A stretch of DNA of 47,482 nt from the IMG/VR virus record IMGVR_UViG_3300044470_000442, positions 1 to 47,482 of that record, one strand, 5' to 3'. Positions 4,867 through 47,482 of the stretch are shown here, one piece after another (within the stretch, counting starts at the first letter, position 1; the number at the start of each line of letters is the position of its first letter). Source of the stretch: a virus. Made by a program: the position numbers and the translations under genes. The notes under the pieces were generated by a model, which saw nothing but the letters and a program-made list of their open reading frames with translations, was not told the DNA's origin and searched no databases.

Positions 4867-4892
4867 GGCAGACATACGCAGGAGGTTTGACA

Positions 4893-6067: not shown

Positions 6068-7818
6068 ATCAACCAGGAATACCAGCAGGACTCAGCTCAT
6101 CGATCAACGCACCCTCCGGTATTCGCTCAGGCACGGCCGCTCAGGGAAACAGTCCTATCTCCGTGTCAATTGGTGCGGTGACCTCACAGTCCGCTCCGAC
6201 ATATACACTACAGAATACCCAGCCCGGTACTCCTATATATCAATGGGACATCTACGACTTCATGCTCAACGCCTATTTCGGTGAGGGCGGGTTCCACGAC
6301 GGCTCGGCCCTGGTCAAGTCACAGATTGAGAAGGACGTACAGTATGTAGAACGTCGTGCCAACTCTTACTACAAGAACTACGTTCGCCCGATCATCGACG
6401 CGACCTATATCCCTGTCTTCACGAAACCCGTCAAGCGGGTGACCAAGGTCAACGGTGCCGACGACCCCGAGGGAAAAGCGGCTCCAATGTGGAAGGCCTT
6501 CTGTGATAACGTAGACAACAGGGGAACAGACATTGCCCTGTTTGCCCAAAAGGTTGTACGCTATGCCAGAATACATGGCGTTTCGTTTATTGTCATGGAC
6601 AATTTTCCAGATCCTCCGGTGGCCGAGGCCGATGCAATCAAGGAGAGAAAGTTTCCTTTTGTGGCGATGCGCCTGCCGCAGCAGGTCGAGGTTTCCCTGC
6701 TGAAACTTGACCGCTTTATGGGAATCGAAGAGATTGCTTTCAGAGAAGCTCCCTGCAAGGGACAGGAACGCTGGAAGCTTTGGACGAAGGAATACTCGGT
6801 CTGTTTATACAAGGACAAAGAGGGTAACTTTCAGCAGGACGGTGAGACACTATTCGTATATAACCTGGCAAAGGTTCCGGTTATTCCGGTTTTCTCAGCG
6901 GAGTGTGAAGATGGAACAATCCTCCCGAAACCGAACTTTTATGATATAGCACGTTGTAACTGGAAACTGTTCAATACCTGCTCCGCTCAGGACAGGTTGA
7001 TGCGTGCACAGATGTTCGCGATCCTTTGCGCACCGAAGATTGAGCAGGGCTTCGCGTCATCGCCTAACCAGGGTTTCGAGCTTCCCGCAAACGACTCCAA
7101 CTCAGGAGTGTCTTACCCGACACCGTTTTACCTTGCCCCTCCGACCGGTCCCTACGCCGAGATAGGCAAGAACATAAACGATCTCGGGAACGACTTGTTT
7201 CAGATGGCAGGACAGCAGGGTGTGACCGGGGTCAAGACTGAAGCGTCAGGGATTGCCGCTGCTTATGACTGGCAGGGGCAAGAGTGGGTGCTTAAGCAGA
7301 CTGCCGCGATGGCAAAGCTTTCCGAGGAAAAGATCGCAGAGGTTTATCAGCTGTATGTACCAACAATCAAGATTGAGTATTGTGCTGAATATTCGACGGA
7401 CTATCAGGTCATTGACCAGATGGCAAAAGGTAATCAGTTCAGTCGCTTTCTTGCCGATATTTCCCAGCTTAGTGTTCCGTACAATCCTGTCGTAGCAGAG
7501 GGAATCATCGAGTATTGCTACGCAACCTATAACGGGATCAAGGAAGAGGAGGTGCAGGAAATTATTGATTGGATAGAGAAGAACACAAGCGAGGATGCCG
7601 AACCACAAGCAGACACAAGTATTCCGGAGTTGAACGATAATGACAAAGTGATGTCCTTCCTTAAGGACAAGAACCATGTACCGAACTCGGCTTTTGCCAA
7701 GAACACCACAACTAAAAAGGGCGTCAGCAACCCAAGGGGACAAGGTGGAACAAACGATGATCCTACCTTGGAAGACAACAACGTTCCAAACCCTAAAGAG
7801 GAGGTTGCCGTTAAGTGA
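6058..7818 (+). CDS. putative portal protein
   Basis: 586 aa with AAGGAG 8 nt upstream. Located between the terminase block and the MuF-like head morphogenesis gene. Assigned by position and size. Confidence 0.65.
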   Translation: MSINQPGIPAGLSSSINAPSGIRSGTAAQGNSPISVSIGAVTSQSAPTYTLQNTQPGTPIYQWDIYDFMLNAYFGEGGFHDGSALVKSQIEKDVQYVERRANSYYKNYVRPIIDATYIPVFTKPVKRVTKVNGADDPEGKAAPMWKAFCDNVDNRGTDIALFAQKVVRYARIHGVSFIVMDNFPDPPVAEADAIKERKFPFVAMRLPQQVEVSLLKLDRFMGIEEIAFREAPCKGQERWKLWTKEYSVCLYKDKEGNFQQDGETLFVYNLAKVPVIPVFSAECEDGTILPKPNFYDIARCNWKLFNTCSAQDRLMRAQMFAILCAPKIEQGFASSPNQGFELPANDSNSGVSYPTPFYLAPPTGPYAEIGKNINDLGNDLFQMAGQQGVTGVKTEASGIAAAYDWQGQEWVLKQTAAMAKLSEEKIAEVYQLYVPTIKIEYCAEYSTDYQVIDQMAKGNQFSRFLADISQLSVPYNPVVAEGIIEYCYATYNGIKEEEVQEIIDWIEKNTSEDAEPQADTSIPELNDNDKVMSFLKDKNHVPNSAFAKNTTTKKGVSNPRGQGGTNDDPTLEDNNVPNPKEEVAVK

Positions 7819-8786
7819 GACCGTCTCCTTTCAAACGCTATGCTGATGCCTTCGGTGCCCGTTGGGACGCCATAAGTCCTGAGCTGCAGCAGGAGATCCT
7901 TGCGGACATTGCCGCGGGAAAGCCTCCCGCTATTGCGGTCAAAGTCGTGTTTGAGAGGCATGGGATCAAGGAGAAGATCGCCGACTGGATCGCCGAGGGT
8001 TGTTTAGAATCAGCAGCAGCTGGTGGTGTGAAATTTGCAAGCGACCTTACCGGGCGCTTTTACTTTTTGAACAAGACCTTTAACGCCGACAGCATTTCTC
8101 TCAGCGAACGCGTCACGCAACTTAAGTTTCAGGACACGGTTGTTTCGACATTGCAGGCAAACCTCGCCAGCCAGGACCAGTTTTCAAGGCTGGTGACTGA
8201 CCTGGCAAAATACACTACCGAGGAAGACCTGCCGCAAGGTCTTTTGGAGCTTGAAAGACAGGCACGCCGGGTTATGTCCGGGGATGTTGAGGCCTTCGAT
8301 GAGTTCGCCGCGACCTTGAAAAAGGAAAAGGCTATAGCCTTATCCGCAATACACGACGGTGACGAGACCGTTTTGAAACGTTCCTATGTAAAGCTTACCA
8401 AAGCAGCGGAAAGCTTGAACGAGAAAAGTCTTAACTATGCCGTGGAGAACGCAATTGACCAAAAGGCACGCAGTGCCGCCTTTCGTATCGCGCATACAGA
8501 AATGGCCAATGCCTATGGCTTGGCGGTCAGGACAGATGCGGCGCGAGACACAGAATGCACGGGTATCGAGTGGACGCTTTCGTCTGCCGAGAACCATTGT
8601 GATGTTTGCGATGATCTTGATGGGAAGGTCTTTGCCCTGGGTGAGTTGCCGGAATATCCGGCGCACCCTCATTGTTCGTGTCATCTTGATAAATACTACG
8701 GTGATGAAAGCGATGTTGAGAACAAACCTGGTAATTCAGACGATGAGACAATACCCGAGGAACTTTTACTTGAAAGCGGGGATTAA
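7815..8786 (+). CDS. head morphogenesis / minor capsid protein, SPP1 gp7 - Mu F family
   Basis: GTG start overlapping the portal stop (GTGA), with GAGGAGG upstream. The C-terminal motif HCDVCDDLDGKVF...YPAHPHCSCH is typical of the MuF/gp7 family. Confidence 0.8.
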   Translation: MRPSPFKRYADAFGARWDAISPELQQEILADIAAGKPPAIAVKVVFERHGIKEKIADWIAEGCLESAAAGGVKFASDLTGRFYFLNKTFNADSISLSERVTQLKFQDTVVSTLQANLASQDQFSRLVTDLAKYTTEEDLPQGLLELERQARRVMSGDVEAFDEFAATLKKEKAIALSAIHDGDETVLKRSYVKLTKAAESLNEKSLNYAVENAIDQKARSAAFRIAHTEMANAYGLAVRTDAARDTECTGIEWTLSSAENHCDVCDDLDGKVFALGELPEYPAHPHCSCHLDKYYGDESDVENKPGNSDDETIPEELLLESGD

Positions 8787-15491: not shown

Positions 15492-16463
15492 ATGTTTCCA
15501 CGTAATAATTCATACGACAAGATAGTCCCAACAGGGCAGGCCAAGACGCCCTCCGATGTCCGCTGGCCTGCCTATTGCATGGTCGAGCCGTATGAGAAGT
15601 CTTTTTCAACGGCGGTGGCAAATAATGTGTGGATGAAGGAGTTACCGCCCGAGAAGCAAAAGATTGACTACGACAAGGCCTTTCAACAGTTCATGGAGCT
15701 TGGGCAATGGGTCGCTGCCAATTCCTCGACCTATCTTATCCCTAACAAGGGAAAGTACCAAGACCTGATCTACTGCGCCAATATCGGAATTTATCTCGAA
15801 CCTGCAGATGTGATCGTTGTCTCCAATTTCACCTCTGAACCAAGGAGAGGCGAGGACGAGATTGGCAAGGCCTTTTTTGACCTGATGGGTTATACCGTCG
15901 TGAAGCCACCGCCGACCTGTCACTTCGAGGGCGAGGCTGACCTCAAGTTCCAACGGGATAATATCTTTGTCGGTGGTTACGGGATAAGAACCGACAAGGA
16001 GACTTTTGACTGGATGGAACGTCAATTCAATATCAAGATCGTCAAGTGCCTTATGACCGATGAAAGACAATACCACTTCGACTGTATGTATTTTCCGTTG
16101 ACCATGGAGAAGGCGTTGGTGTGTACCGAAATATACCAACCGGCAGACCTTGCCGAAATTGAAAAGGTCGTCGAGATTATTGACATCCCAAAGCCTGAGG
16201 CATACGCGATGTCGACGAATTGCGTTCGTGTTGGAGCGAATATCCTTGTGGCATCGGAGATAACCGAAATGCACTCTTCTGACCCTGCATACATAAACGA
16301 AGTGACCAAACTCGGAAGACTTGGGCAGATTTGTTCCAATAATGGTCTTAGTCTTATTTCGGTTAACCTGTCTGAGTTCAATAAGTCAGGCGCGGCGCTG
16401 TCCTGCCTTATGTTCCATTGCAACTATGTCGATTACCAGTCACCACTCGGTGAGGTATTTTAA
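15492..16463 (+). CDS. amidinotransferase / arginine-deiminase / CtlX-like enzyme (guanidino-group-modifying fold)
   Basis: 323 aa with AGGGAG 7 nt upstream. Motifs HFEGEADL (cf. EGGD), YHFDCMYF (cf. HLD) and C-terminal SGAALSCLMFHC (catalytic Cys position) fit the amidinotransferase (PF02274-like) pattern as I recall it. Confidence 0.65.
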   Translation: MFPRNNSYDKIVPTGQAKTPSDVRWPAYCMVEPYEKSFSTAVANNVWMKELPPEKQKIDYDKAFQQFMELGQWVAANSSTYLIPNKGKYQDLIYCANIGIYLEPADVIVVSNFTSEPRRGEDEIGKAFFDLMGYTVVKPPPTCHFEGEADLKFQRDNIFVGGYGIRTDKETFDWMERQFNIKIVKCLMTDERQYHFDCMYFPLTMEKALVCTEIYQPADLAEIEKVVEIIDIPKPEAYAMSTNCVRVGANILVASEITEMHSSDPAYINEVTKLGRLGQICSNNGLSLISVNLSEFNKSGAALSCLMFHCNYVDYQSPLGEVF

Positions 16464-17179
16464 TGTCACAGTCGCTGGAGGAATGGTTGGTCGAGATTGA
16501 GCCGTTTAAACGGATGGACCCCGATGTCCTTTCGTCGGTGTTCTTTTTTCGTGATCCGTCACGACCGATCTTTCTTGACTCCGATTACATCTTTTCTCCA
16601 GCGGACGGAACCATTATTGACCAGGGTTTTATAAAGCCTGACCAGCAGATTGTGGAGATGAAGGGCGTTGACTATTCGCCAAGGAAGCTTTTGGAGGAGC
16701 CCGCGTTCAACTCGACCTCCTTGTGTATTTCGATCTTTATGTCACAGTATGATGTGCACATTAATCGGATGCCGACAAACGGGAATGTCTTTTTCAGAAC
16801 GGTTGATCCTATCCAGACAAAGAACATTCCGATGATCTTTGAGGAACGGGACCTGCTTGCCGGACATAGCAACTATGAACACATGGACTATGTCACTGCA
16901 AACGCTCGAACAATTAACAGGATCACCAACGGTGGCTACCAATATTATTTGGTACAGATTTGTGATACCGATGTCAACGTGGTTGCTCCGTTTTCGACAA
17001 AGCAGGGGAAACATTTTTTTCAGAACGAACGCTTCTCTGTTGTCCGCTATGGGTCACAGGTAACCCTGGTGCTTCCCTTGACGGATTCGTTTGACTTTGA
17101 CCTGATGGAGCAACCGGAAAGACATGTCAGGGCCGGGCTTGATCGTCTTGTATACCTGAGGTCAAAGAAGCGTGACTGA
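16463..17179 (+). CDS. phosphatidylserine decarboxylase-family pyruvoyl-dependent decarboxylase (short type)
   Basis: 238 aa. The start overlaps the upstream stop (TAATG). Motifs FFFRDPSRP, FSPADGTI, SIFMSQYDVHINRMPTNG and the self-cleavage-type VRYGSQVTLVLP (G-S site) match short PSD/Asd proteins. Confidence 0.75.
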   Translation: MSQSLEEWLVEIEPFKRMDPDVLSSVFFFRDPSRPIFLDSDYIFSPADGTIIDQGFIKPDQQIVEMKGVDYSPRKLLEEPAFNSTSLCISIFMSQYDVHINRMPTNGNVFFRTVDPIQTKNIPMIFEERDLLAGHSNYEHMDYVTANARTINRITNGGYQYYLVQICDTDVNVVAPFSTKQGKHFFQNERFSVVRYGSQVTLVLPLTDSFDFDLMEQPERHVRAGLDRLVYLRSKKRD

Positions 17180-31566: not shown

Positions 31567-31755
31567 TTAATCCACCTTTGCTAAAAGAAAATAAGCGGTG
31601 AAACCTATTTCTATGATAAAAAACACAAATAACACTACAGTGGAGACGAGACGTTCAATGCGCGACGCGTGCCCGGAGTCCGCTACGATGAGAACAATCA
31701 TACTGATTCCCATACAAACACTATTAACAAGGAACCATTTTATCATATTTATCAT
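31567..31755 (-). CDS. small two-TM membrane protein (62 aa)
   Basis: Two hydrophobic helices (FLVNSVCMGISMIVLIV and VSTVVLFVFFIIEIGFTAYFLL). The start overlaps the upstream stop. Confidence 0.5.
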   Translation of the reverse strand: MINMIKWFLVNSVCMGISMIVLIVADSGHASRIERLVSTVVLFVFFIIEIGFTAYFLLAKVD

Positions 31756-32429
31756 ACTTGTTTTCTCCTAATTATAGGTTTCTTATTAAGAAAGGATTGC
31801 TCCCAAGCGTTCGGTTCAGGCCACTTGCCCTGTATTTGAGTCCAGTCAAAAACAATCCAGACCCTTTGCCCGGTCAGTTCATTTATCGAACGCCAGGTCG
31901 TTTTGTTTAGCCCTGCAGACTCAACCAGCACTGGAGAAAAGGAGCCGTCGTATTTACACGCTGCTTCCAATGCCTTTATTGCCCCGGCAAGGACTTTTCT
32001 GTTGTATATCATTTTTGAAACAGGGGTTACCTCGTGGGAAACGCGTGACAAAAACTCTTTCCACGGTATTTTGTAGTCTTCCCTAAGAGTTCGTCGTATT
32101 GTTTGGTGAAGAGATCGCCGCCCGTCACGCGTTTCTACCTTCACCTCAGCGCCCGAGCTAAGGGATAAATCCGCATGCTCTAATATTCCCTTGAATAAAG
32201 TATCTCGGGGTATTGCCCTTTGCAGTTCTTCCGCTGTTTTCAGAGGCAGTATAATGCTGTCAGAAAGGTTATCCTTTGAGCCAAACGGTACCTCTTGTAT
32301 TATTGGTTCTGCCACGAATAGACCCGCGTTATTGCTGGAGATTCCAACAACAGTTCCGTCCTTTTCGATAAGGACAAACTCCCCGCCAACTGCCACTGCT
32401 CCTGCGAGCATTGCTTTATTGACCAGCAT
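31752..32429 (-). CDS. hypothetical protein (225 aa)
   Basis: Long ORF overlapping both neighbours on the same strand. No family securely recognised (see the rejected clamp-like idea). Confidence 0.6.
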   Translation of the reverse strand: MLVNKAMLAGAVAVGGEFVLIEKDGTVVGISSNNAGLFVAEPIIQEVPFGSKDNLSDSIILPLKTAEELQRAIPRDTLFKGILEHADLSLSSGAEVKVETRDGRRSLHQTIRRTLREDYKIPWKEFLSRVSHEVTPVSKMIYNRKVLAGAIKALEAACKYDGSFSPVLVESAGLNKTTWRSINELTGQRVWIVFDWTQIQGKWPEPNAWEQSFLNKKPIIRRKQV

Positions 32430-32907
32430 TGTTATTCATCTCCCTTTGTATTTTTTCATGGGATTCTCTTACTTTGGCAATACATCGTTTGCAGTGATCT
32501 CCTTTAGGGGAGGCCCAAACGGAAATAAAACCCACTGAGGCATCTTCAACCACTTGGCATTTATACCCGAGATTGATGAATTGCTTTACCATTTCATCAA
32601 TTGGCATCTTTGCCGTAATTTTTACCGGAAGATCATGCCCTATTTCTTTGGTATCTATAGTACATTGATAAACAAGAAACGCTCCTGTTTTAGCATATAC
32701 CGGATCGTAAATACCCCTTTCTATTTCTGCCAGTTCAAAGCGCACTATGTCCTGGTTCTCATCCATGAAGGTATTCAGTATTTCCCTCAATTTTTCAGAG
32801 AAATTTTTTCCCCTCGGAAAGCTGGAAATAAAGTCGATATGCTTCGTGGTGATAGCTACCGGGCAGGGGATTTTCCGATCAGCAAATTTTACGACGGGTC
32901 TTGGCAT
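32416..32907 (-). CDS. possible ribbon-helix-helix DNA-binding protein with C-terminal domain
   Basis: ATG at 32907 (MPRPVVKF...) with GGAG 6 nt upstream; the track start at 32919 is TTG. The N-terminus (CPVAITTKHIDFISS...FSEKLREILNTFMDE) resembles a beta-strand-helix-helix motif. Confidence 0.45.
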   Translation of the reverse strand: MPRPVVKFADRKIPCPVAITTKHIDFISSFPRGKNFSEKLREILNTFMDENQDIVRFELAEIERGIYDPVYAKTGAFLVYQCTIDTKEIGHDLPVKITAKMPIDEMVKQFINLGYKCQVVEDASVGFISVWASPKGDHCKRCIAKVRESHEKIQREMNNNAGQ

Positions 32908-32921
32908 TTCTTTCTCCAATG

Positions 32922-32955
32922 TTTAACCGCTTAAGAAGCCCTATTTAACCGCTTA
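32922..32955 (-). promoter_or_regulatory. tandem 12-bp direct repeats (TTTAACCGCTTA x2, 22-bp spacing) in the only sizeable gap of the operon
   Basis: Perfect copies at 32922..32933 and 32944..32955, located 15-48 nt upstream of the RHH-like ORF start and downstream of folE. Confidence 0.4.
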
Positions 32956-32991
32956 GAAACCTACGCTCCTGGAAATTTGACTCCCTTTTGG

Positions 32992-33894
32992 TCATCCTCT
33001 CCCTTTATCGCGGATAATCGAAAAGAACTCGGCCCGAGCTTTTCCTTCTTCTTTGAGGATACCCCGAAGAGAAGAAGTCATCATAACCGAGTTCTGTTTC
33101 TGAATACCCCGAATAACCATACAGAGGTGCTGGGCTTCAACCAATACAGCAACGCCAAGCGGGTTCAGATATTTCTCAACAGCGTCTGCAATTTGAGAAG
33201 TTAACCTTTCCTGTATTTGCAGGCGTCTTGAAAAGCAATCCACGAGACGGGCGAGTTTCGATATTCCAACAACCTTACCTCCTGCTGACGGAACGTAGGC
33301 AACATGAGCCTTACCAAAGAAGGGAAGTAGATGGTGCTCACAGGTGCTCGAAAACTCGATGTCCTTTAAAACGACCATTTCATCATAGGAACCATCGTTG
33401 TCAAAAACCTTGCTCAATATTTCTGCAGGGTTCTGCATGTACCCTTTATAAAGCTCATCCCATGACTTGAGAACCCTACGTGGCGTATCCTTTAAACCGT
33501 CGCGCGTCGGGTCTTCCCCGATGTATTGTAGGAAGCGTAGGGGAACGTCTTCGATGCTTCCCAACATGTCCCCTTCCCATGGAAATACGATCCACTCTTT
33601 TTCGAGTTTTTTTCTTTTGTCTATCAAAGCAAAAAACGGTCGGGCGTATTGTGTGAAATACCTTTGCATTGTCTTGCCCGAGTCAATAAGGTCATCGACA
33701 AACACGGTTGCGTGGTCGGGCGATGACGTAACAGTGGAACCGGGAATGTGCATTGCCACGGCATAGGCAACCGGAACCCCTCCACGGGGTACTCCGTAGA
33801 TAATTGGTTTCGGTCCTATCTCCGGTTGGTTTCCTATGTCCAGTGCGACGTTGCTTGCAAGAATATTTACGTCGGTAGTCGTAAGTTTTTTCAT
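32992..33894 (-). CDS. folE: fusion protein: N-terminal type I phosphoribosyltransferase (Gpt-like) + C-terminal GTP cyclohydrolase I
   Basis: 300 aa. The N-terminal part has [13 protein letters not shown], the PRPP loop [13 protein letters not shown] and EWIVFPWE (Gpt-like ending). The C-terminal part has the FolE motifs [34 protein letters not shown] and HLCMVIRG. Confidence 0.85.
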
Positions 33895-34496
33895 TATCGA
33901 ACTCCTATGAATTTATGTAGTTGAACACCAACACGCCATCGTGGCCCGAGCCTTTCACATTCCTCCATTGCCATAAGGAATACTTTCTTAGACCTGGTCT
34001 CCGGTGAAATGACCTGCAGGGAGTAGTCAATCGCTGGGAAAGAAGACCAGTCGTCCGCTTCGATTCCTTCCATATATGGATACAGTATTTTCAGAGAGAT
34101 GCACGAAGTTACCTTACAGTCCTTTCGAGGTATTTTTGGGCTCAAGGATACCTCTACCGGTTCACTGGAAATTGGAAACGTCCCGTTTGTTTCCAAATGA
34201 ATGACGTAATGGTTCTTTACCAAGACGAAGATCAAATCGTCTAACTTTTTCTGTAAAAGGGGTTCTCCACCGGTAAGAACAATCATGCGACACTTGTTGT
34301 CAGAAAGTACACTAACCTTTTCAAGAATATCCTCTATTCCCATTACTTGATAACCAGGTATCGAAGTGTCACAAAAAGCGCACATAAGGTTGCAGCCGTG
34401 GAACCTTACGAAGATTGCCGGATGTCCAGCGAACAGACCTTCACCTTGGATGCTTTTGAATATCTCGGCAACGTTATACATATTGTACCTCGACAA
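33894..34496 (-). CDS. queE: 7-carboxy-7-deazaguanine synthase (radical SAM)
   Basis: 200 aa. SIQGEG and the radical-SAM cluster motif [11 protein letters not shown]. The stop overlaps the folE start by 1 nt. Confidence 0.85.
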
Positions 34497-34878
34497 AAGA
34501 AGTATCGGTTTCCCAGACCTTGACGGATTCCAGTGTCACGTTTTCAATTCCTGCTTGGTCAATTTTCTTGAACAGAAGCTTTGCGATATTCTCCACGGTT
34601 GGGTTGTTTGGAAGGATTACCATTTCAGTCAATCCGTGAAGAAGGCCAACGAGAGGGTCAAAGGAATTAAGCATAATACAATGATCAAGTTCATTGATTA
34701 TAGGATTAATTTTTTCCTTTAGAACAGAGAAGTCAACAAGAAATCCCATACCATCAAGGGAGTTCCCGTTGAAAGTGACCTGAACTTTGTAATTGTGACC
34801 ATGTATGTTTTTACATGGACCTGTATAACCAAACAGGCGATGTCCGGCACAGAACTGAAACTCCTTCGTAATGATCAT
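34474..34878 (-). CDS. queD: 6-carboxy-5,6,7,8-tetrahydropterin synthase
   Basis: 134 aa. FCAGHRL...HGHNY...DH motifs typical of QueD/PTPS. Confidence 0.85.
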   Translation of the reverse strand: MIITKEFQFCAGHRLFGYTGPCKNIHGHNYKVQVTFNGNSLDGMGFLVDFSVLKEKINPIINELDHCIMLNSFDPLVGLLHGLTEMVILPNNPTVENIAKLLFKKIDQAGIENVTLESVKVWETDTSFVEVQYV

Positions 34879-35531
34879 GATATGTACTCCGTTTCGTCTT
34901 TTATTTTTGCTTCTTTGAACGCCTCTTTCCTTTCATTGCAAGCACCACACGTTCCGCAATGTTTTTCATAACCCCGATAACAAGAGTAGGTCAAGAACAT
35001 CGGCGCTTTGATGCGCTTTCCCAGTTCTACTATTCCTGTTTTGGTAAGGTCATAAAAAGGAGTCAGAAGGAGAATACGTTTTTCTGTTCCTTCCCTGATA
35101 GCATCCTCCATTGCAGTATTGAACTGTGGGCGACAGTCAGGATAGATATAGTGGTCTCCGGCGTGCGAGGCAAGGGAAACGCAGCCCATACCCATACTCT
35201 CAGCGAACCCGACAGCTATTGCAAGCATAATTCCGTTGCGAAAAGGAACAACGGTTGAGCGCATGTTTTCAGCTTGGTAATGCCCCTCTGGAATCGCATC
35301 AGATCCGGCGAGTAAAGAAGACTGGAAATGTTCCTTGATAAAATCAAGGGCGATTTCATCGAGGTGTATTCCATATTGTTTGGTAATCTTCTGTGCAGCC
35401 ATACGTTCCATCCGATTGTGATTACTCCCGTAGTAAAAATTGAGGCATGACACTTCGTTTCCTTCATCTAACAATTTCGTCAAAAGAACAGTGCTGTCAA
35501 GACCTCCCGAGTAGACGTGAAGTATTTTCAT
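34875..35531 (-). CDS. queC: 7-cyano-7-deazaguanine (preQ0) synthase
   Basis: 218 aa. PP-loop SGGLDS and the C-terminal zinc cysteines SCY...HCGTCGACNERKEAF. No glutamine amidotransferase domain is attached. Confidence 0.88.
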   Translation of the reverse strand: MKILHVYSGGLDSTVLLTKLLDEGNEVSCLNFYYGSNHNRMERMAAQKITKQYGIHLDEIALDFIKEHFQSSLLAGSDAIPEGHYQAENMRSTVVPFRNGIMLAIAVGFAESMGMGCVSLASHAGDHYIYPDCRPQFNTAMEDAIREGTEKRILLLTPFYDLTKTGIVELGKRIKAPMFLTYSCYRGYEKHCGTCGACNERKEAFKEAKIKDETEYIS

Positions 35532-36586
35532 TAGACCCTCCTTTTTTGGGACGATAAATGATCAGGATCGGCATTATTGATGTCCATCGATACGGCAAAG
35601 GCTTTTGTAACGTTTGGGAAATCCATTTCCCACATAGCACCAACGGCAGTCGTTGTTTCTAATTTCTTTGCCCATTTGATCCAAGAAACCGCGGTTATCT
35701 TTCCGATATAGCTTTCGTTGGTAACCCTGTGCCAATTTTCTTCTTTCTTGAGTTCATCAAAGTCAAAACCAAGTTCGGTTATCTCTCTGCGAAAGTTTCC
35801 AGCAAGTATATCTTCTCGCTGGCACATTCTCCACGAGTTATCGTGGAATATTTGTACGTGACCAAAACGACATCCGCCAACCCATGCCGTTGAGTCAAAA
35901 CTTGTTGGCTTGAAGTAAAGGATAAAGTCTCTATTGGCAAAACCAAGCCAGTGAACTTTTCTCCCTTTGCGAGCGTTCTGTTCAAACCATTTTACATACT
36001 TGTTAGCGTTTTGCGTTCCTGCAATTCCGCCAAGACCCACCAAGGAACTGCACTGGTAAAACCCGTCAAGCTCCTTGATGTCTTCTCCTCTGGTAAAGAT
36101 AGGAACCGGCTTGAGTCCTTTCTTGAGCATTTTTTCAAGATTAATCTTTGTTACCTTTGGGTCACCAATTTTATCGAGCATAAAATAACGCTCAATAGGA
36201 ACAGGAGGGCTTTTTACAAAGGCACAGTATTCCTCAAAATTGACTTCCTTGCCCTGCTTATACGCGGTGAAGGCCCCGGAGTCCAGGTAGAGACGATAAC
36301 TTCCTTCCCATTTTTTGAGGGCCTTAACAATATTTTCGTTCCAATAGGCATACGAGATAAGAATAGGAACTTTCCACGGCGCTACCTTGGAACGAGCAGC
36401 AGCAGCAGCAGCAGAGACACTGTTTGGCAAGTCCTTGCCTTCGTACCCTATTACTGTAGCACCAATACTTCCGAGGCGCTGGAGATGCTCTGCTGCTGCT
36501 GCTGCATTAGGTATAGAGTTGGGGTCACCGGTTTGTCCGGATTTTATGACACTCATACCGATTGTAGTTGTCTTTCTTGTTATCAT
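35531..36586 (-). CDS. dpdA: DpdA-type DNA-guanine transglycosylase (TGT-like) with an unusual Ala-tract N-terminal extension
   Basis: 351 aa. YLDSGAF and a TGT-like core, located directly upstream of queC (TAATG overlap). The first roughly 75 aa (two AAAAA(A) tracts) are not typical of the family. Alternative start at M11 (36556). Confidence 0.75.
   Translation of the reverse strand: MITRKTTTIGMSVIKSGQTGDPNSIPNAAAAAEHLQRLGSIGATVIGYEGKDLPNSVSAAAAAARSKVAPWKVPILISYAYWNENIVKALKKWEGSYRLYLDSGAFTAYKQGKEVNFEEYCAFVKSPPVPIERYFMLDKIGDPKVTKINLEKMLKKGLKPVPIFTRGEDIKELDGFYQCSSLVGLGGIAGTQNANKYVKWFEQNARKGRKVHWLGFANRDFILYFKPTSFDSTAWVGGCRFGHVQIFHDNSWRMCQREDILAGNFRREITELGFDFDELKKEENWHRVTNESYIGKITAVSWIKWAKKLETTTAVGAMWEMDFPNVTKAFAVSMDINNADPDHLSSQKRRV
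36399..36505. repeat. 18-bp perfect inverted repeat built from triplet repeats, (GCA)5GAG / CTC(TGC)5, inside the 5' part of dpdA
   Basis: Arms at 36399..36416 and 36488..36505 with a 71-nt spacer. On the coding (minus) strand both arms encode Ala tracts. Confidence 0.9.
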
Positions 36587-37164
36587 TTTACCTCAAGTCC
36601 TTTCAAGCCAGTTACGTCTATCCAGCTTTGGAGCAATTCTTTCACCTCTTCCTTTTTGGCAGCGTCAAGAACTATGACTATTATCTTGTCCTTAAGTCCT
36701 GAGTTCTCGGCATTTATTTTTCCGATTTTATTCAAATCGGGTAACATGGCAATTCCACGGTATTCGTCTTCGGTGAAGCCTGACCACTCGCGGACATTCT
36801 TTTGCTCAAAGAATTTAAGAAGCAAGGAATCGTCCCACTGTGCCCACTCGCTGCTTTTATTGTCCGCAATACCGTAGGCAATAGCGGCCTGTTCGCTGGG
36901 GAAATTAACGAACAGAACCTTGACAGATTTCCACCCGAGTTTCTTTGCTGCTTTCCAAGTCGTGTTACCTTTGTAGATAACCTTGTTCTTTTTCCATACT
37001 ACTATGGGCGTGACCTGTCCGCGCGTCTGCAGAACTTCAGCAAGCTTTCCAACAGACCCGTCGTTCTTTCTGGGATTTTCTTTCCACAGAAAAACTGAGT
37101 CAATAGGAACATTTTCAATCGCTTCGTTCAACAGAACCTTGGTTTCTTCCTTCTTCGTAATCAC
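36583..37164 (-). CDS. ParB N-terminal (ParB/Srx) domain protein, DpdB-like partner candidate of DpdA
   Basis: 193 aa. The LWKENPRKND motif (ParB-box-like NPR) and the GNTTWKAAKKLGW helix are present. The stop overlaps the dpdA start (ATGA) and the start overlaps the primase stop. Confidence 0.65.
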   Translation of the reverse strand: MITKKEETKVLLNEAIENVPIDSVFLWKENPRKNDGSVGKLAEVLQTRGQVTPIVVWKKNKVIYKGNTTWKAAKKLGWKSVKVLFVNFPSEQAAIAYGIADNKSSEWAQWDDSLLLKFFEQKNVREWSGFTEDEYRGIAMLPDLNKIGKINAENSGLKDKIIVIVLDAAKKEEVKELLQSWIDVTGLKGLEVK

Positions 37165-39221
37165 AAAACCTCCTTATACATATTACAGTTTTTTATTATT
37201 TCTAAAATGTCCTTTTTTATCATCCAGAACGGTTTGTCATCCTCTCGTGTTTTGTCCAACGCCCCGAGCATCATAAGATTTTCGAGAATGATTTCCGTCG
37301 TTGGTCGGGGTAGGTGCACGTCATTCGTGATCTCAAATATGCCGTGGTGGTCCTGCATATATATTGCTTTAAGGACATCACCGTAACGGGACTGTATACT
37401 CGCATTGGCAACGTGTACAAGAATACGTATGATTGAATCGTCAACCTCTTTCATCCCTTTAAACGTAGCAATACCCTGGGCAAGCTTATATAATTGCTTA
37501 AGTAGACGCGTACCGAGTTCAGAGAAGGGACGGTACAGAACATCTCTTCTGAACTTATCTCGCGTAACGTTTCCCCTAAGCATAGCGATCCATTGCGCAA
37601 TCTGTATTATTTTTTCCTCATACTTCACAGGAACTGTAGCCCACTGATCCGTGTAATTGGCCATGAGGATTTTCTTTCCCATAGAATTGAGTTCAGCCCT
37701 GATCTCGGGTTCCTTCCCTATATTTCCCATTGCTTTGCGTATATAGACCTCCCGTGATTTCATTGCTCGGGGTATTCGGTGTTCCCACCTAAGGAAGCGT
37801 TCTCCCAGCGATGCGTGTTCCTCGATGACTTGTTCAATGATAGGGGTGACTGCGGCAATTATACCGAACTTGCTTTTGTAATTCCTTTTTATTCCATTAC
37901 CAAAAGGCTTTGAACACTCTCCGTCATAGGCGTCCCGGAGTATTGAAAATATTTCGTTACATTCCGCGCTCGGTAAGCCAAGGATTGAGGTGAAGTCCTT
38001 TATAAGGACAACCTTTCCATCCCATTGCGGTATCAAAGAAGGGTCCGCGATCATGGTTGATGACGATGAACCACTAATAAGGGTGTGAGGAGTCAGGGAT
38101 GAAAGAGTTTCTATTTTAGGGCAATTGGTGCAAGACATGATAACTTCTGACTTGGTACCACCTGGCGGCGATATAAGAAACAACCAAACGGGGTCGCCCG
38201 GTATTCTATTGGCTAATACCGTTCCATAGACAACGTCGATTATTTCCATGCTCGGAAGGTGCAAGTATTTTCTGAACGTTTCGTAGACTTCGTCAATTGG
38301 TACCCTATCCCCTTTTATGAAATCGTCCGAAACGGGAGTAACCGGAGATTGTGTCGTATCATAAATTGAAAAAATACTTTTCAGATATTTTAAGGTAGCG
38401 GCTGCTTTCTTTTCCTTTTTGTGCACGTCTCTGACATCGTATTTATCCGGTGTACCTTTTGGCCATTTGATAAACCATGTTTTAGACGCCACCCCAGCAA
38501 CTAATTTTGCAACCTTCTTATTTGCATTTACTCCGGCAAGATCATTGTCATAGCAAAGAAACACTTCTTTTCCTACAAGAAGAGGTAGGACCTCAGGACG
38601 AAAAGTTCCTGCACCAGGAACTCCCACTACGATAGATTTTTTGTCTTTTACAGCCTCAAGACATTCGATAAGAACCATCGAATCCCACTCTCCCTCGGCA
38701 ACATAAACGGTGTCATAGTCTTTTATATTATTTGGTATTTTCCACAAACCATACATCGTTGAGGGGCACCCTGCCGTATTGTGAAAAATGGTACCGTTGT
38801 ACAACTTGATGTTAAGAATATTTTTTCCATCGCTGGAAAAAACAGGAACTATATACAAATCGGTACTCGGAAGATACCCTACTTTCAGAGAGCGTAAGGT
38901 CGTTTCAGAAATACACCGGTTATCGGATAGCTTTTTGGAAACCACTCCGTTAAAGTTTTCTTGACCGAAATCAATTATTTGTTCTAAAAATCCCTTATAC
39001 CCTCCGCTCCTTCCACATGATTTACAATCCCAAACCTTGTTGGGATGTTCGACGTTAATAAAAAAGTGTTTATCTTTTCCGCAAAAAGGGCAGCGACCTA
39101 TTATTTGGTCACCGCTTGATCCCTGGTCACGGAACCCGTACTGTACGAACATTGTCAACGGATTTCTCTGCGTCACTGCTGGCATTGCTTTGACCCTCCA
39201 ATGACTTGCCAATGTATTCAA
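37161..39221 (-). CDS. DNA primase (zinc finger + TOPRIM) fused to a C-terminal NTPase/helicase-like domain
   Basis: 686 aa. Zinc finger CPFCGKDKHFF...CKSCGRSGG, TOPRIM VYVAEGEWDSM...FLCYDNDLAG, and the P-loop-like ISPPGGTKSE. The start is uncertain, with alternatives at 39185 and 39152. Confidence 0.8.
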   Translation of the reverse strand: MNTLASHWRVKAMPAVTQRNPLTMFVQYGFRDQGSSGDQIIGRCPFCGKDKHFFINVEHPNKVWDCKSCGRSGGYKGFLEQIIDFGQENFNGVVSKKLSDNRCISETTLRSLKVGYLPSTDLYIVPVFSSDGKNILNIKLYNGTIFHNTAGCPSTMYGLWKIPNNIKDYDTVYVAEGEWDSMVLIECLEAVKDKKSIVVGVPGAGTFRPEVLPLLVGKEVFLCYDNDLAGVNANKKVAKLVAGVASKTWFIKWPKGTPDKYDVRDVHKKEKKAAATLKYLKSIFSIYDTTQSPVTPVSDDFIKGDRVPIDEVYETFRKYLHLPSMEIIDVVYGTVLANRIPGDPVWLFLISPPGGTKSEVIMSCTNCPKIETLSSLTPHTLISGSSSSTMIADPSLIPQWDGKVVLIKDFTSILGLPSAECNEIFSILRDAYDGECSKPFGNGIKRNYKSKFGIIAAVTPIIEQVIEEHASLGERFLRWEHRIPRAMKSREVYIRKAMGNIGKEPEIRAELNSMGKKILMANYTDQWATVPVKYEEKIIQIAQWIAMLRGNVTRDKFRRDVLYRPFSELGTRLLKQLYKLAQGIATFKGMKEVDDSIIRILVHVANASIQSRYGDVLKAIYMQDHHGIFEITNDVHLPRPTTEIILENLMMLGALDKTREDDKPFWMIKKDILEIIKNCNMYKEVL

Positions 39222-43209: not shown

Positions 43210-43509
43210 TCAATGTGTTTTCCACTCCGGTACCTCCTGAATAATTTTTCGTGCTTCTGCACTGCATGGAATAATCTCAATTGCCTCTGTAAGAGTTATT
43301 TCCGGCACCACAGCAGGAAATTTACAGTTGCCTGGTTTTGATACGCCGCGAACTGCCAGTTCAGACAACGACGCGGCACCGTCCCAGTACCACAAGCGCC
43401 GGGAGTCCTTGAGGATAACCTCTTTTCCCTTGCGGTAAATAAGCGTACCGGCATGTACCCCTGCCGAGTAGGTTCTAACTATGACATACGGTGCCTCGAC
43501 TTTTTTCAT
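43210..43509 (-). CDS. conserved-looking phage protein of unknown function (99 aa)
   Basis: Translates to MKKVEAPYVIVRTYSAGVHAGTL...RRLWYWDGAASLSELA... I recall similar sequences in many phage replication modules, with no assigned function. Confidence 0.6.
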   Translation of the reverse strand: MKKVEAPYVIVRTYSAGVHAGTLIYRKGKEVILKDSRRLWYWDGAASLSELAVRGVSKPGNCKFPAVVPEITLTEAIEIIPCSAEARKIIQEVPEWKTH

Positions 43510-43711: not shown

Positions 43712-44551
43712 TTAAGAGTCCAGTTCAACGAACAGAGTCTTTTTCTTTGTCAAGTTTGAATAGTCATCGTTGGCACAGGCGCTGGAAAAAGAACATCCCG
43801 AATACATATCACAGGCGCAAAGATTATGCCACCAAACCTGTCTTGTTTTTAAGTCCTTGAGTTTGGCAAGTAGCTCAAACTCAAATTGTTCCAAATCCTT
43901 GACCGACCACTGGATGATCCAGCGATGAAAATAATAATCCGGGTTCTTTTTTATATCGGCCTCAAGACCCGCTTTTTTTGAAAACCTGATTACGTTGTGT
44001 ATCGTTTTCTCCGGAGGACGGCGGTACATGACTCTAAAAGCCAGCGCGTAGAACATAGACTGAAAATGGAGAGCCAGGGTCTTTTCGTAGTTGTTGGATA
44101 TCTGGCCCCGTGTTTTTGTTTCCATCAAATCAACTCCGTCCATTATGTCGTCCATCTTTCCCCTAAACCGGAATCCTTTGTATTGAATATCAAACTTGAG
44201 CTCAGGGTTGTGCTTTCTGTCCATGTCCGAGGCGTACTTGAGCTGGTACCCCTTAAAAAGAATTGTTGCCGTTTCCTGCATAAACGCTGCTTCCTCGGGT
44301 GTGATGGTTCCCTCGAAAGAATAATCGTTGATCGCCTTTGCTATCGCTGTTTTTGTCTTTCCTTGGTACCAGAGATCAAGGACACTGTGGAAGAGTGAAC
44401 CGAACTGCAGCGCAGTGCTTGGTTCCTTTGACTTCCAAAGGTTGATGTCAAATAAGAACTTTCTCGGACACATCATATAGCTGGTCAGAAGGGAAGAGGT
44501 TATCCCCGTTCCTTCCAGCGAATAGGTTTTAAGACCTTGTTCCAATACCAT
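43712..44551 (-). CDS. PD-(D/E)XK nuclease, Cas4/RecB-like with Fe-S cysteines
   Basis: 279 aa. N-terminal Cys (YMMCPRKF), FGSLFH, DLMETKT (D...E-x-K) and the C-terminal cysteine cluster CACDMYSGCSFSSAC. Confidence 0.7.
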   Translation of the reverse strand: MVLEQGLKTYSLEGTGITSSLLTSYMMCPRKFLFDINLWKSKEPSTALQFGSLFHSVLDLWYQGKTKTAIAKAINDYSFEGTITPEEAAFMQETATILFKGYQLKYASDMDRKHNPELKFDIQYKGFRFRGKMDDIMDGVDLMETKTRGQISNNYEKTLALHFQSMFYALAFRVMYRRPPEKTIHNVIRFSKKAGLEADIKKNPDYYFHRWIIQWSVKDLEQFEFELLAKLKDLKTRQVWWHNLCACDMYSGCSFSSACANDDYSNLTKKKTLFVELDS

Positions 44552-45056
44552 GGTAGAGCCTCGCTAATTTGAAAAGGTTTGATTTATAAGACTGAGCCCT
44601 TACCCCACCTGATCTGAGAAGAGCAGAGGGGTGAGTTATTTTTACAGAGTCCGAATAAACTTTTGAAAACTGTTTCTGAGCAACATCGCCAACAAGAACG
44701 ATGAACTTCGGTTCCGCCTGTTCAATGATAGACTTTACATTAGCAATGCAGTTCACGATTTCCCTTGGTATTGGTTCTCTGTTCTTTCCACCCTTATAAT
44801 CACAGGGTCGACAAAGTACGGTGTTCGTAAAATATTTTGGTACCTCCGCGAGTCCCGCCTTTTCTATCATCTTGTCAAGAAAGCGGCCACTCTCCCCTAT
44901 AAACGCCTTTCCCAAAAGGTCCTCCGACACCCCAGGCGCTTCACCTATGAAAAGGATATCGCAGGGAATCTCTCCCCTTCCGAGCACCACTTGGTGCCTG
45001 AACTTACAGAGGGGACATTCCTGACATTGTTTTATTTCAGAAAGCCTTTTTTCCAT
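44529..45056 (-). CDS. uracil-DNA glycosylase family 4-like protein
   Basis: I prefer the ATG at 45056 (MEKRLSEIKQCQECPLC...). Motif A is GEAPGVSEDLLGKAFIGESG, motif B is HPSALLR, and Fe-S-type cysteines are present. Confidence 0.75.
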   Translation of the reverse strand: MEKRLSEIKQCQECPLCKFRHQVVLGRGEIPCDILFIGEAPGVSEDLLGKAFIGESGRFLDKMIEKAGLAEVPKYFTNTVLCRPCDYKGGKNREPIPREIVNCIANVKSIIEQAEPKFIVLVGDVAQKQFSKVYSDSVKITHPSALLRSGGVRAQSYKSNLFKLARLYHGIGTRS

Positions 45057-45526
45057 AAACCAATACCAACCGCCGCCGCTATGTGATCTGAGGAGTAGTC
45101 CTCCCCTACGATCCGCGCGCACCAGCTCCGTAGAACTGGATACGGTAGTTGTCCTTTCCAATTAGGATCAACGATTTGTATTACTGCCTCAGGGTATTTT
45201 CCTCTTATGAACGAATAGTAAGACCCGACGATATATGCCAAAAGAGAAAGGTTTCCACGAGAAGCCGATGTTATGGATTTTAAAGAAGAGGTCCAAACCC
45301 TCACCCCTTCTATACAGACATTATCAAGTTTTCCTATCCTGTATCTTACAAAGAAATCTTCGAGTTTTAAAATAAGATCATCGAGTTGTTTCTCCGGAGT
45401 CTTAGCACTTTTCGTGACATTAAACTGGTCTACGAAAAGAGGAGCCATTTTGTTTTCGTTCATTGAAAACATAGCCAGTCCGGTGTGGATACCGGGGTCA
45501 ATGGTTAGTACGGTTTCGTATTCCAT
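45032..45526 (-). CDS. RuvC-like Holliday junction resolvase
   Basis: 164 aa. LTIDPGIHTG (catalytic Asp), CIEGV (Glu) and the C-terminal SSDHIAAAVGIG, consistent with an RNase-H-fold resolvase. Confidence 0.7.
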   Translation of the reverse strand: MEYETVLTIDPGIHTGLAMFSMNENKMAPLFVDQFNVTKSAKTPEKQLDDLILKLEDFFVRYRIGKLDNVCIEGVRVWTSSLKSITSASRGNLSLLAYIVGSYYSFIRGKYPEAVIQIVDPNWKGQLPYPVLRSWCARIVGEDYSSDHIAAAVGIGLWKKGFLK

Positions 45527-46928: not shown

Positions 46929-47417
46929 TCAACCCTTTGGCAGGGAACCTATGGCCTTTTTGAGAATCTCTTTTCCTTTGGGTTTCGTTTCGGGTTTTGT
47001 CCGAACGAACTCAACGAGTTTGTCTTTGTCGTTGCGGGTCCAGCGATGCAGAGGGAGAAGCTTTGCCTTTGTGTCAGGTACTTTTACGCGCGATGAATTG
47101 ATGTGACCGCGCACCTGTGCGACGTAAATTTTGTCCTCAGGCACCTTTTTTTCTTTTGAGACGAGTTTGATAATTTCCTCGTCAGTGTGCTTGTTCTCCA
47201 AAAGATAATCCACGGTCAGGGAGAACACCGAAGGTTTTCTGTCGTCCTTTTTGGCAACCGGAGTGACCTTTTTGGCAACTGGTGCTTTGACCGGTGCTCC
47301 CGGGTTCTTTGCCGGGCTTTCGTCGTCTTCCTGTTCCGGCGTTCCTATGTACGGTTTTGCCGTGGGTTGCGAGATTGCTTTTTTTGACACTGCCTCTGAC
47401 TTTTTGATAATGGCCAT
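46929..47417 (-). CDS. hypothetical Lys-rich protein (162 aa)
   Basis: Its start codon lies in the terminal repeat. The N-terminus is disordered and Pro/Lys/Ala-rich. No family recognised. Confidence 0.55.
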   Translation of the reverse strand: MAIIKKSEAVSKKAISQPTAKPYIGTPEQEDDESPAKNPGAPVKAPVAKKVTPVAKKDDRKPSVFSLTVDYLLENKHTDEEIIKLVSKEKKVPEDKIYVAQVRGHINSSRVKVPDTKAKLLPLHRWTRNDKDKLVEFVRTKPETKPKGKEILKKAIGSLPKG

Positions 47418-47482
47418 TAGGCCCTCCTTGTGTCTGGTGTAAAAAACTTACTGTTTACTGTGTGACTGAGCTTAAAATATTC
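47356..47482. repeat. Terminal direct repeat, copy B (identical to 1..127)
   Basis: Same comparison as copy A. The repeat contains the start codon (47417) of the 162-aa minus-strand ORF. Confidence 0.95.

Follow-up and report, generated by a model that had tools for sequence, protein, structure and literature searches.

A candidate Rosebush-type 7-deazaguanine DNA-modification operon, with a ParB-like gene and a shortened Gpt-like domain, in the replication module of an uncultured phage

When an uncultured phage carries a compact string of 7-deazaguanine genes beside its primase, which base would it place in its DNA, and what are a ParB-like protein and a phosphoribosyltransferase (PRT) domain doing in the same string? 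The question is raised by six consecutive minus-strand genes (ParB-like, dpdA, queC, queD, queE and PRT-folE) in IMG/VR record IMGVR_UViG_3300044470_000442, which we analysed over its whole 47,482 nucleotides (here called the window). Taken together, the sequence evidence argues for a Rosebush-type 7-deazaguanine DNA-modification operon located inside the replication module, a reading to which we give a probability of roughly 0.78. It is a known kind of system, and its closest experimentally characterised example is the operon of phage Rosebush. All six genes were found again at the coordinates given in an earlier note on this DNA, namely 32,992 to 37,164 (Table 1).

The first line of evidence is the comparison with Rosebush itself. 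Rosebush gp1-gp6 and Sonali gp86-gp91 have the same gene order as the window (ParB-like, DpdA, QueC, QueD, QueE, FolE), likewise on one strand and likewise with 4-nt and 1-nt start/stop overlaps, and Rosebush also encodes neither an amidotransferase nor QueF, which gives the same predicted product. The proteins themselves have diverged deeply: identity to the window is 29-31% for DpdA (partial alignments), 40-44% for QueC and ~43% for FolE, and the window ParB-like protein has no BLAST match to Rosebush gp1. Three further differences concern the architecture. The window FolE carries an N-terminal PRT domain, the mini-Gpt discussed below, whereas the Rosebush and Sonali FolE proteins do not; the window DpdA has a disordered N-terminal extension of ~70 aa, unlike those of Rosebush and Sonali; and the window operon sits between the primase and a predicted PCNA-like sliding clamp, whereas that of Rosebush sits beside the terminase. 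Sonali (locus L111 of our set) encodes two genes labelled 'queuine tRNA-ribosyltransferase', at 1002-1619 (gp81) and 3989-4879 (gp87), ~2.4 kb apart, of which only gp87 follows a ParB-like gene and heads the Que operon.

The second line of evidence comes from the transglycosylase. The window DpdA matches phrog_887 (E=8e-28), the same PHROG as the DpdAs of 9g, R7M, VpKK5 and PSASB_03, as an outlier of that group (1e-28 versus 1e-78 to 1e-98 for four cultured Queuovirinae DpdAs). Translated searches with tblastn reach 9g, JenP1, BRET, Sonali and ~180 other phage DpdA genes at ~28% identity and E~1e-17; for 9g the values are E=7e-17 by tblastn and E=5e-23 by blastp. An alignment of 46 DpdA homologues shows little or no variation at D102-S-G-A, F106, D138, G186, H212 and D231, and the window residues D102/F106, D138, G186, H212 and D231 align with D72/F76, D114, G162, H196 and D215 of 9g. 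The histidine H212, equivalent to H196 of 9g, occurs in 13/13 and 46/46 sequences, and both it and the catalytic Asp residues are also kept in 4 cultured references. The earlier note had named the loss of these Asp residues as grounds for abandoning the idea; on alignment they are all in place. Their spacing fits D95/F99, D130 and D256 of the Salmonella Montevideo DpdA, for which mutagenesis or modelling points to D95 (with F99) as general acid/base, D130 as the base-recognition residue and D256 as the nucleophile (PMC10164549).

The clade to which this enzyme belongs can be approached through published diagnostic features. DpdA1 comprises proteins with detectable homology to the DpdA of Enterobacteria phage 9g, a PSI-BLAST search started from 9g misses DpdA2, and His196 separates the 9g type from DpdA2, which is without it (PMC6884629). 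The signature of DpdA4, DUF6610 (PF20314), has no match in the window DpdA (Pfam, E<=0.01). Homology to 9g, membership of phrog_887, the His196 equivalent and the catalytic Asp residues are the features by which we filed the window protein in the 9g-type (DpdA1) family, as one of its divergent members. Structure prediction is in part consistent with this assignment: the AlphaFold (AF2) model (mean predicted local distance difference test score, pLDDT, 78.8) is an alpha/beta barrel with residues 1-57 disordered, and its top named matches in BFVD are phage queuine tRNA-ribosyltransferases (Sonali, Megan and others) with template-modelling (TM) scores up to 0.71, the TM score reaching 0.89 for an uncultured-phage relative. 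The predicted disordered extension (aa 1-70, nt 36377-36586) contains the poly-Ala runs NAAAAAE and SAAAAAAR; it is common to the closest relatives only (P0002-P0004), the majority of homologues beginning near residue 72.

Some results for this protein pull the other way. When the model was searched against the PDB with Foldseek, only generic TIM barrels were returned and no tRNA-guanine transglycosylase (TGT) or DpdA appeared in the top 50; phmmer and profile searches of PDB sequences with DpdA gave no match, and no solved TGT or DpdA; and the protein is only ~26-31% identical to any DpdA that has been tested. DpdA also has no match in Pfam (E<=0.01), NCBIfam or PADLOC, TGT models included, and the experimentally studied 9g DpdA is likewise without a PADLOC match. 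One could therefore ask whether the cluster is instead an auxiliary metabolic module serving host tRNA queuosine or folate/pterin synthesis, as FolE, QueC, QueD and QueE are common to tRNA-queuosine biosynthesis and phage databases call DpdA a 'queuine tRNA-ribosyltransferase'. We regard this as very improbable: the transglycosylase falls in the phage DpdA1 family, which acts on DNA (PMC6884629), and matches no TGT model of Pfam or NCBIfam; QueA, QueG, QueH and QueF are not present; and DpdA is paired with a predicted DNA-binding ParB module in an operon lying between primase and clamp.

The enzymes that would supply the base are better conserved. QueC matches PF06508 (E=1.6e-58) and TIGR00364 (172.6 bits against a cutoff of 150.3, E=7e-51), has the SGGLDS PP-loop and the C-terminal Cys cluster, and consists of the QueC domain only, without Gat. 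QueD matches PF01242 (E=1e-34) and, above its cutoff, TIGR03367 (93.5 bits, E=8e-27), and its CxxxHGH motif reads CKNIHGH, so that the Cys is kept. The shortness of QueE keeps its matches to the equivalog models (E=1e-24 to 1e-27) under the cutoffs; all top matches are QueE models, phrog_2076 is matched at E=5e-32, and the radical-SAM motif reads CNLMCAFC. The FolE domain (match over aa 120-295) is recognised by PF01227 (E=2e-72), NF006825 (E=1.5e-76) and PDB entry 1wm9 (E=1e-58), and has the zinc and active-site motifs CEHH and HLCM. The FolE, QueD, QueE and QueC set that had been recognised from the sequence is thus complete, with catalytic motifs intact and profile searches in agreement.

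Which base would such an operon produce? According to a published rule, FolE, QueD, QueE and QueC together with DpdA give the deoxynucleoside of 7-cyano-7-deazaguanine (preQ0), dPreQ0, and dPreQ0 has been measured at ~32% of G in CAjan and ~28% of G in Rosebush; deletion of dpdA in CAjan abolished both the modification and the resistance to restriction (PMC6884629). Since gene content and order here equal those of Rosebush gp1-gp6, whose DNA has measured dPreQ0, this is the best prediction for the window, and we consider it highly probable provided that the operon is expressed. A tailoring enzyme could change the outcome. A Pfam scan of every open reading frame (ORF) of at least 62 aa in the complete genome gave no match to QueF, ArcS, GATase/Gat-QueC, DUF3109 (DpdM), a formyltransferase (DpdN) or a Cys-less QueD paralogue (DpdL), with the limit that such a scan would miss an enzyme of a new kind or one that has diverged very far, and the weak QueF matches seen fall inside the tunnel-fold FolE domain. 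DpdL is a QueD paralogue without the motif Cys (PMC10516641); the window QueD keeps this Cys, and hence is read as QueD and not as the decarboxylase paralogue DpdL. The scan agrees with the earlier note, which had seen no queF, no Gat-QueC fusion and no arcS/queF-L and had proposed dPreQ0; that proposal is supported by the minimal gene set, by the Rosebush gene order and by the lack of any known tailoring family genome-wide.

Doubt about dPreQ0 persists because the substrate preference of DpdA has shifted in other lineages. The operon might work with a main base other than dPreQ0: dADG or dCDG (the deoxynucleosides of 7-amido- and 7-carboxy-7-deazaguanine, ADG and CDG) through a promiscuous DpdA, dPreQ1 (from 7-aminomethyl-7-deazaguanine, preQ1) through a host QueF, or a derivative made by an unrecognised enzyme, for example the product of ORF167 downstream of folE or of another uncharacterised ORF. 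DpdA lineages can insert CDG, preQ0 or preQ1, and the DpdA2 of VH7D, which prefers preQ1, is an instance of such a lineage shift that weighs against dPreQ0; a minor amount of dADG accompanies dPreQ0 in Rosebush (PMC6884629); many ORFs of the genome have no Pfam match; and ORF167 itself has conserved Cys, Trp and Gly residues and no assigned fold. Both the identity and the abundance of the product are, moreover, predictions. We nevertheless judge another main base improbable, since a phage with dPreQ0 in its DNA has exactly this gene set in this order, QueC is full-length and of equivalog level, so that the pathway reaches the nitrile, no known tailoring family was detected, and ORF167, unlike the widespread operon, is confined to a narrow lineage.

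The two ORFs downstream of the operon, together with enzymes of the guanidino-group-modifying enzyme (GME) fold encoded elsewhere, had been put forward as candidates for further tailoring, and none of them fits that role. ORF225 (31,752-32,429) has six sequence homologues only, and its AF2 model has a pLDDT of 67, better in the N-terminal half; a Foldseek search of the PDB placed only clamps (PCNA, 9-1-1 or beta-clamp) in its top 50, with probabilities of 1.0 or close to it. By its modelled structure it is a PCNA-like sliding clamp, a replication protein, and it was rejected as a tailoring enzyme for this reason. In Queuovirinae, DpdA likewise adjoins a replicative clamp. ORF167 (32,416-32,907) belongs to a family of 31 homologues by exhaustive search and has no match in PDB, PHROG, Pfam or PADLOC. 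Its homologues always precede a clamp-like gene, the pair stands right after folE in L002, L070 and L090, and it occurs there even in an unrelated contig. We see in it a probable lineage-restricted partner of the clamp gene, with no enzyme signature in its sequence. At a distance of 16-30 kb from the operon, within the structural module, the GME-fold genes resemble an agmatine deiminase (PAD_porph Pfam 7e-31) and an arginine dihydrolase, and not deazaguanine tailors. With a phosphatidylserine-decarboxylase-like gene that directly follows the second of them, they may form a phage arginine/polyamine pathway, to judge from their homologues; both the placement and the combination of these three metabolic enzymes are unusual. 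A search of viral contigs for relatives of the agmatine-deiminase-like gene returned none.

The first gene of the operon had been passed over as incidental. The ParB-like protein matches PF02195 (28.9 bits against a gathering cutoff of 26.3), phrog_8071/620 (ParB-like) and phrog_498 (ParB-methyltransferase N-terminus), at E~1e-25 (E=7e-25 for phrog_498); in PADLOC the N-terminus of MTase_II was matched and DpdB was not, and its tblastn matches lie within genes labelled 'DNA modification methylase'. How often such a gene accompanies DpdA was counted around relatives of the window DpdA, for which 80 viral loci were fetched, 75 non-redundant ones analysed, and 62 had enough upstream DNA. A ParB-like ORF lies immediately upstream of DpdA on the same strand in 47/62 loci by single-sequence search and in 61/62 by profile search, and the remaining locus (L053) is a fusion, so that the association holds in 62/62. 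The DpdAs of these ParB-paired loci are 32-85% identical to that of the window. In L053, positions 6845-8230 form one ORF of 462 aa, with the ParB-like module at aa 1-166 and DpdA at aa 186-459, a single example for which a frameshift artefact is possible. The family is uniform, with 180-200 aa, an N-x-R-x-H box and a G-H-G-R box, the latter being the counterpart of the ParB GxxRxxA and DpdB DGQQR motifs. Moreover, the pairing is kept whether the operon lies beside the primase, as in the window, or beside the terminase, as in Rosebush. The gene is thus a conserved part of the cluster.

What might this protein do? The bacterial DpdA is inactive without DpdB, a ParB-superfamily ATPase (PMC10164549), and a mycobacteriophage paper has proposed a ParB-like ORF1 as a possible dpdB homologue (PMC6392294). 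The ParBc module, with no assigned function, has also been noted beside another DNA-modifying enzyme of phages (PMC12783734), and it makes up the N-terminus of many phage DNA methyltransferases. The two main surveys of phage deazaguanine systems make no mention of the gene. From this context we favour, at somewhat better than even odds, the idea that DpdA has in the ParB-like protein a partner for DNA binding or loading. Several points speak against it. The GxxR box of the window protein reads KGNTTWKAA, with the Arg absent; no DpdB match was obtained in PADLOC, and NCBIfam returned only weak generic ParB/Noc models below cutoff; and the Queuovirinae DpdAs that we examined have no ParB neighbour, so that a partner is not universally required. 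We rejected membership of the DpdB family for the window protein, given its lack of a DpdB model match, its 193 aa and its KGNTT box. We also rejected the idea that the missing Arg marks a dead system, as the box of Rosebush gp1 (AGNHT) is also without Arg and the DNA of that phage has 28% dPreQ0; because this Arg is absent, the role of the protein here may be independent of nucleoside triphosphate (NTP) hydrolysis.

Another view would be that the ParB-like gene is unconnected with DpdA and encodes a generic ParB-like phage protein, be it a nuclease, a partition protein or a transcription factor, that happens to lie in the replication module. Many phages that lack DpdA have a ParB-like gene standing alone, and 9g-type DpdAs work without such a neighbour, which, with the missing Arg and the lack of a DpdB match, would fit an unrelated function. 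Adjacency on the same strand in 61/62 loci whose DpdAs are as little as 32% identical, one in-frame fusion, start/stop overlaps in the window, Rosebush and Sonali, and the survival of the pairing in a different neighbourhood make a chance association improbable in our view.

Among the ParB-DpdA clusters, nine (L037, L038, L044, L071, L080, L081, L082, L084 and L085) have QueD and QueE, and all of them except L082 also FolE; no QueC was found in any of the nine, even by profile search of the locus DNA. In these phages the pathway may end at CDG, and what they insert may be dCDG or one of its derivatives.

The other element that had been treated as incidental is the PRT domain at the N-terminus of FolE. 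PF00156 matches the window protein only weakly, below cutoff. A profile of the family aligns end to end with xanthine-guanine phosphoribosyltransferase (XGPRT; 5xtk, 1a95) at E=1.4e-9, covering residues 1-142 of 152. The motifs PRGG, VDD(I/L)(I/V)DSGxT and W-x-V-F-P-W-E are kept at >=90% across >100 homologues. As in E. coli Gpt (1A95/5XTK), the pyrophosphate (PPi) loop, the phosphoribosyl pyrophosphate (PRPP) motif, a Lys that aligns with that of the Gpt FAK motif and W-x-x-x-P-W are present; the mini-Gpt differs from E. coli Gpt by deletions in a loop and in the hood and by its form, either fused to FolE or a mini-protein of ~130-150 aa. By these sequence features the domain is a shortened Gpt/XGPRT-like type I 6-oxopurine phosphoribosyltransferase.

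This domain recurs well beyond the window. The PRT-FolE fusion is widespread, with >100 clusters of ~290-310 aa, and the domain also occurs in the cultured Pseudomonas phages NP1, PaMx25, JG012 and Quinobequin-P09, in Vibrio VpKK5, in PSASB_03 and in Stenotrophomonas and Sphingomonas phages; in cultured phages the genes are labelled GTP cyclohydrolase only, and in the phage deazaguanine literature that we searched no paper mentions the PRT domain. Among complete DpdA clusters it is present in 29/58, fused to FolE in 9 and free-standing in 20, where the ORF (~130-150 aa) nearly always lies between queD and queE. It is a recurrent, conserved part of these systems. A pattern-limited scan of ~185,000 species genomes showed the PRT domain to be rare in cells, with 20 loci, mostly fused to FolE, and around the fusions of three Dehalococcoidia chromosomes (L092-L094) and one Alphaproteobacteria chromosome (L097) no Que or DpdA genes were seen, the neighbours being carboxylesterases or short-chain dehydrogenases. 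These cellular fusions tie the domain to FolE and guanosine triphosphate (GTP) and not to preQ0.

We tentatively prefer 6-oxopurine salvage as the function of the domain, judging from its motifs and gene context. The published assay of bacterial DpdA is a guanine exchange, so that free guanine is a DpdA substrate (PMC10164549), and at the modification levels of Rosebush and CAjan we computed that DpdA would set free ~6,300-7,200 guanines for each genome copy. Two observations count against this reading: ~21 residues are deleted at the flexible catalytic loop (loop II) and ~11 in the hood relative to XGPRT, and the domain is absent from half of the clusters, Rosebush and Sonali included. It is thus dispensable and may be regulatory and not catalytic. 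A non-catalytic sensor or regulator that responds to PRPP, guanine nucleotides or ppGpp and tunes FolE, or a mere oligomerisation appendage, would agree with the loss of the loop that closes the active site and of part of the hood, with this dispensability, and with the reuse of PRT folds as regulators, such as PyrR, which is among the weak PDB matches. This is a serious competitor that we still hold to be unlikely, because >100 homologues show little or no variation in PRGG, in the PRPP motif and in the purine-stacking Trp, more than ligand binding would seem to need, and because the free-standing form cannot regulate FolE in cis.

The domain could also phosphoribosylate preQ0 or another 7-deazaguanine and so open a nucleotide-level, pre-replicative route to DNA. 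A purine-type PRT embedded in a preQ0 pathway invites this idea, and toyocamycin biosynthesis offers a precedent, since in its Streptomyces cluster preQ0 synthesis goes together with a PRT, ToyH. We find such a route quite improbable here. The Asp after the PRPP motif, which aligns with the Gpt Asp, is nearly invariant, and by analogy with hypoxanthine-guanine phosphoribosyltransferase (HGPRT) it presumably contacts the purine N7, an atom that is absent in a 7-deazapurine. The same fusion occurs in cellular genomes without nearby Que genes, and the genome-wide Pfam scan revealed no kinase or reductase genes for a route through dPreQ0 triphosphate. In addition, DpdA is present and intact, and the known phage 7-deazaguanines are all proposed to be post-replicative (PMC10516641).

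Set beside the other characterised systems, the window operon shares parts with each. In Queuovirinae (9g, CAjan, iggy, VpKK5 and the NP1 group) the order is QueE, QueC, QueD, FolE, DpdA, clamp and DNA polymerase. The phrog_887 DpdA with His196 and the catalytic Asp residues, the pathway enzymes and the adjacency to a clamp are the same as in the window, and VpKK5, PSASB_03 and the NP1 group have the PRT-FolE fusion of ~300 aa; they differ in gene order, in having no ParB-like gene, and in that many encode Gat-QueC and make dG+ (deoxyarchaeosine). The bacterial Dpd system of S. Montevideo shares with the window a DNA transglycosylase of TGT fold, putative for the window protein, with the catalytic Asp triad, and a ParB-superfamily protein. 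Its DpdA and DpdB PADLOC models are not matched by the window proteins, and DpdB has ~40-47 kDa, a helical domain (SspE-like) at its C-terminus and the motif DGQQR, whereas the window ParB-like protein has 193 aa and no such Arg. Unlike the bacterial system, which modifies <0.1% of G, the window has no DpdC-K restriction arm.

The way in which these genes are joined is also informative. The overlaps as listed, from primase/ParB-like gene onward, are 4, 4, 1, 4, 23 and 1 nt. The 4-nt overlap with the primase gene (GTGA) that had been reported is there, and so are the other 1-nt and 4-nt overlaps; the 23-nt overlap of queD and queE did not hold up. It depends on a TTG start of queE at 34496, taken from the ORF list, which has no Shine-Dalgarno sequence, whereas the ATG at codon 6 (nt 34481) is preceded by GAGGT and is also the start in an independent gene call of 195 aa. 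Because both the Shine-Dalgarno sequence and that gene call favour ATG 34481, QueE most likely starts there and the overlap is 8 nt. All starts other than the QueE TTG have a Shine-Dalgarno sequence of the AGGAG/GAGG type and an ATGA, GTGA or TAATG junction. Overlapping junctions make up 8/9 in the operon region versus 13/39 elsewhere on the contig (Fisher p=0.006). Translational coupling of the operon is a reasonable inference, and it goes no further than that because overlaps are frequent throughout this phage genome; it is not a distinguishing feature.

Within the gene string only folE and ORF167 are separated by a gap, which holds two tandem copies of the motif CT(T)AAGCGGTTAAA (32922-32954, minus strand). 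The motif occurs nowhere else in the genome and is not significant genome-wide; it may be a local regulatory site. A scan for promoters and terminators gave counts near the shuffle expectation and no convincing signal at the operon borders.

As regards the genome as a whole, an exact 127-bp direct repeat (window 1-127 = 47356-47482) closes it, and because the same 127 nt stand at both ends, the window is a complete, circularly closed phage genome of 47,355 bp. A search of the whole window detected no tRNA gene. The plus strand carries terminase, head, tail and lysis genes at 2.5-30.3 kb, and the minus strand from 30.6 to 47.4 kb forms the replication module, with an SNF2 helicase, a uracil-DNA glycosylase (UDG)-like protein, a PD-(D/E)XK nuclease, AAA_24, PolA and the primase. 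The order primase-ParB-DpdA is also kept in L002, L004 and L070. When 7.6 kb were searched at the nucleotide level against deposited phages, only a 160-nt folE match was returned, which leaves this phage without a close cultured relative. Three further minus-strand genes in or near the replication module encode a DUF932 protein (100-1152, 1e-40), a DUF6948 protein (43210-43509, 9e-32) and the UDG-superfamily protein (44529-45161), which is kept beside the helicase in the related contig L002.

Table 1. Positions of the operon genes, their neighbours and the distant metabolic genes in the window
Feature	Position	Strand	Match or remark
Agmatine-deiminase-like	5156-6067	+	PAD_porph Pfam 7e-31; PDB 3hvm, 2jer
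Arginine dihydrolase-like (cyanobacterial Sll1336/ArgZ)	15492-16463	+	PDB E=9e-21
Phosphatidylserine-decarboxylase-like	16463-17179	+	1e-25
ORF225, predicted PCNA-like sliding clamp	31752-32429	-	Structure match
ORF167/163, best start ATG 32907	32416-32907	-	Family without known match
Gap with tandem motif	32908-32991	-	Sole intergenic gap of the gene string
PRT-FolE fusion (whole gene)	32992-33894	-	PRT and FolE domains
FolE domain (aa 113-300 of fusion)	32992-33558	-	PF01227, NF006825
PRT domain (aa 1-112 of fusion)	33559-33894	-	XGPRT-like profile
QueE, 195 aa, revised ATG start	33894-34481	-	phrog_2076 and QueE models
QueD, 134 aa	34474-34878	-	PF01242, TIGR03367
QueC, 218 aa	34875-35531	-	PF06508, TIGR00364
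DpdA, 351 aa	35531-36586	-	phrog_887
ParB_N-like, 193 aa, GTG start	36583-37164	-	PF02195, phrog_8071/620, phrog_498
Primase	37161-39221	-	Toprim_2, DnaG zinc ribbon, phrog_239/47

How would the parts work together? FolE, QueD, QueE and QueC convert GTP into the free base preQ0. By homology to tested phage DpdAs, the window DpdA would act on duplex phage DNA once it has been replicated and put preQ0 in place of guanine. A sequence-dependent fraction of G would then be dPreQ0, and the DNA would resist restriction. Gene context suggests that the ParB_N-like protein, translated just before DpdA, could act as its DNA-binding or loading partner, and that the mini-Gpt on FolE could turn the guanine released by DpdA, or another free 6-oxopurine, together with PRPP into guanosine monophosphate (GMP). 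Removal of guanine in this way would rid DpdA of a competitor of preQ0 and would replenish the GTP pool for FolE. A joint reading for phage systems of this widespread, mostly uncultured type, which we hold to be less likely than not, takes the small ParB_N protein as the obligate loading or targeting partner of DpdA, a minimal and possibly NTPase-independent counterpart of DpdB, and the loop-deleted mini-Gpt as a guanine sink and recycler; the mini-Gpt would then drive the exchange forward and close a cycle from guanine through GTP and preQ0 to DNA.

The operon adds a deeply sequence-divergent, uncultured phage to the family of phages predicted or known to modify their DNA with dPreQ0. Its DNA is predicted to resist many restriction enzymes and to distort the nanopore signal at a subset of G. 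Beyond a further example, the analysis of this locus shows how strictly ParB_N genes go with DpdA and how the mini-Gpt module recurs, and it gives the downstream ORFs new assignments. Practically every locus of this clade has the pairing of ParB_N with DpdA, on which the mycobacteriophage literature had so far offered no more than a brief remark, and since this putative partner is nearly always there, attempts to reconstitute such DpdAs alone may fail; several heterologous DpdA expressions in the literature were inactive. The mini-Gpt, in turn, suggests how phages may cope with the thousands of guanines that this kind of modification would release per genome copy.

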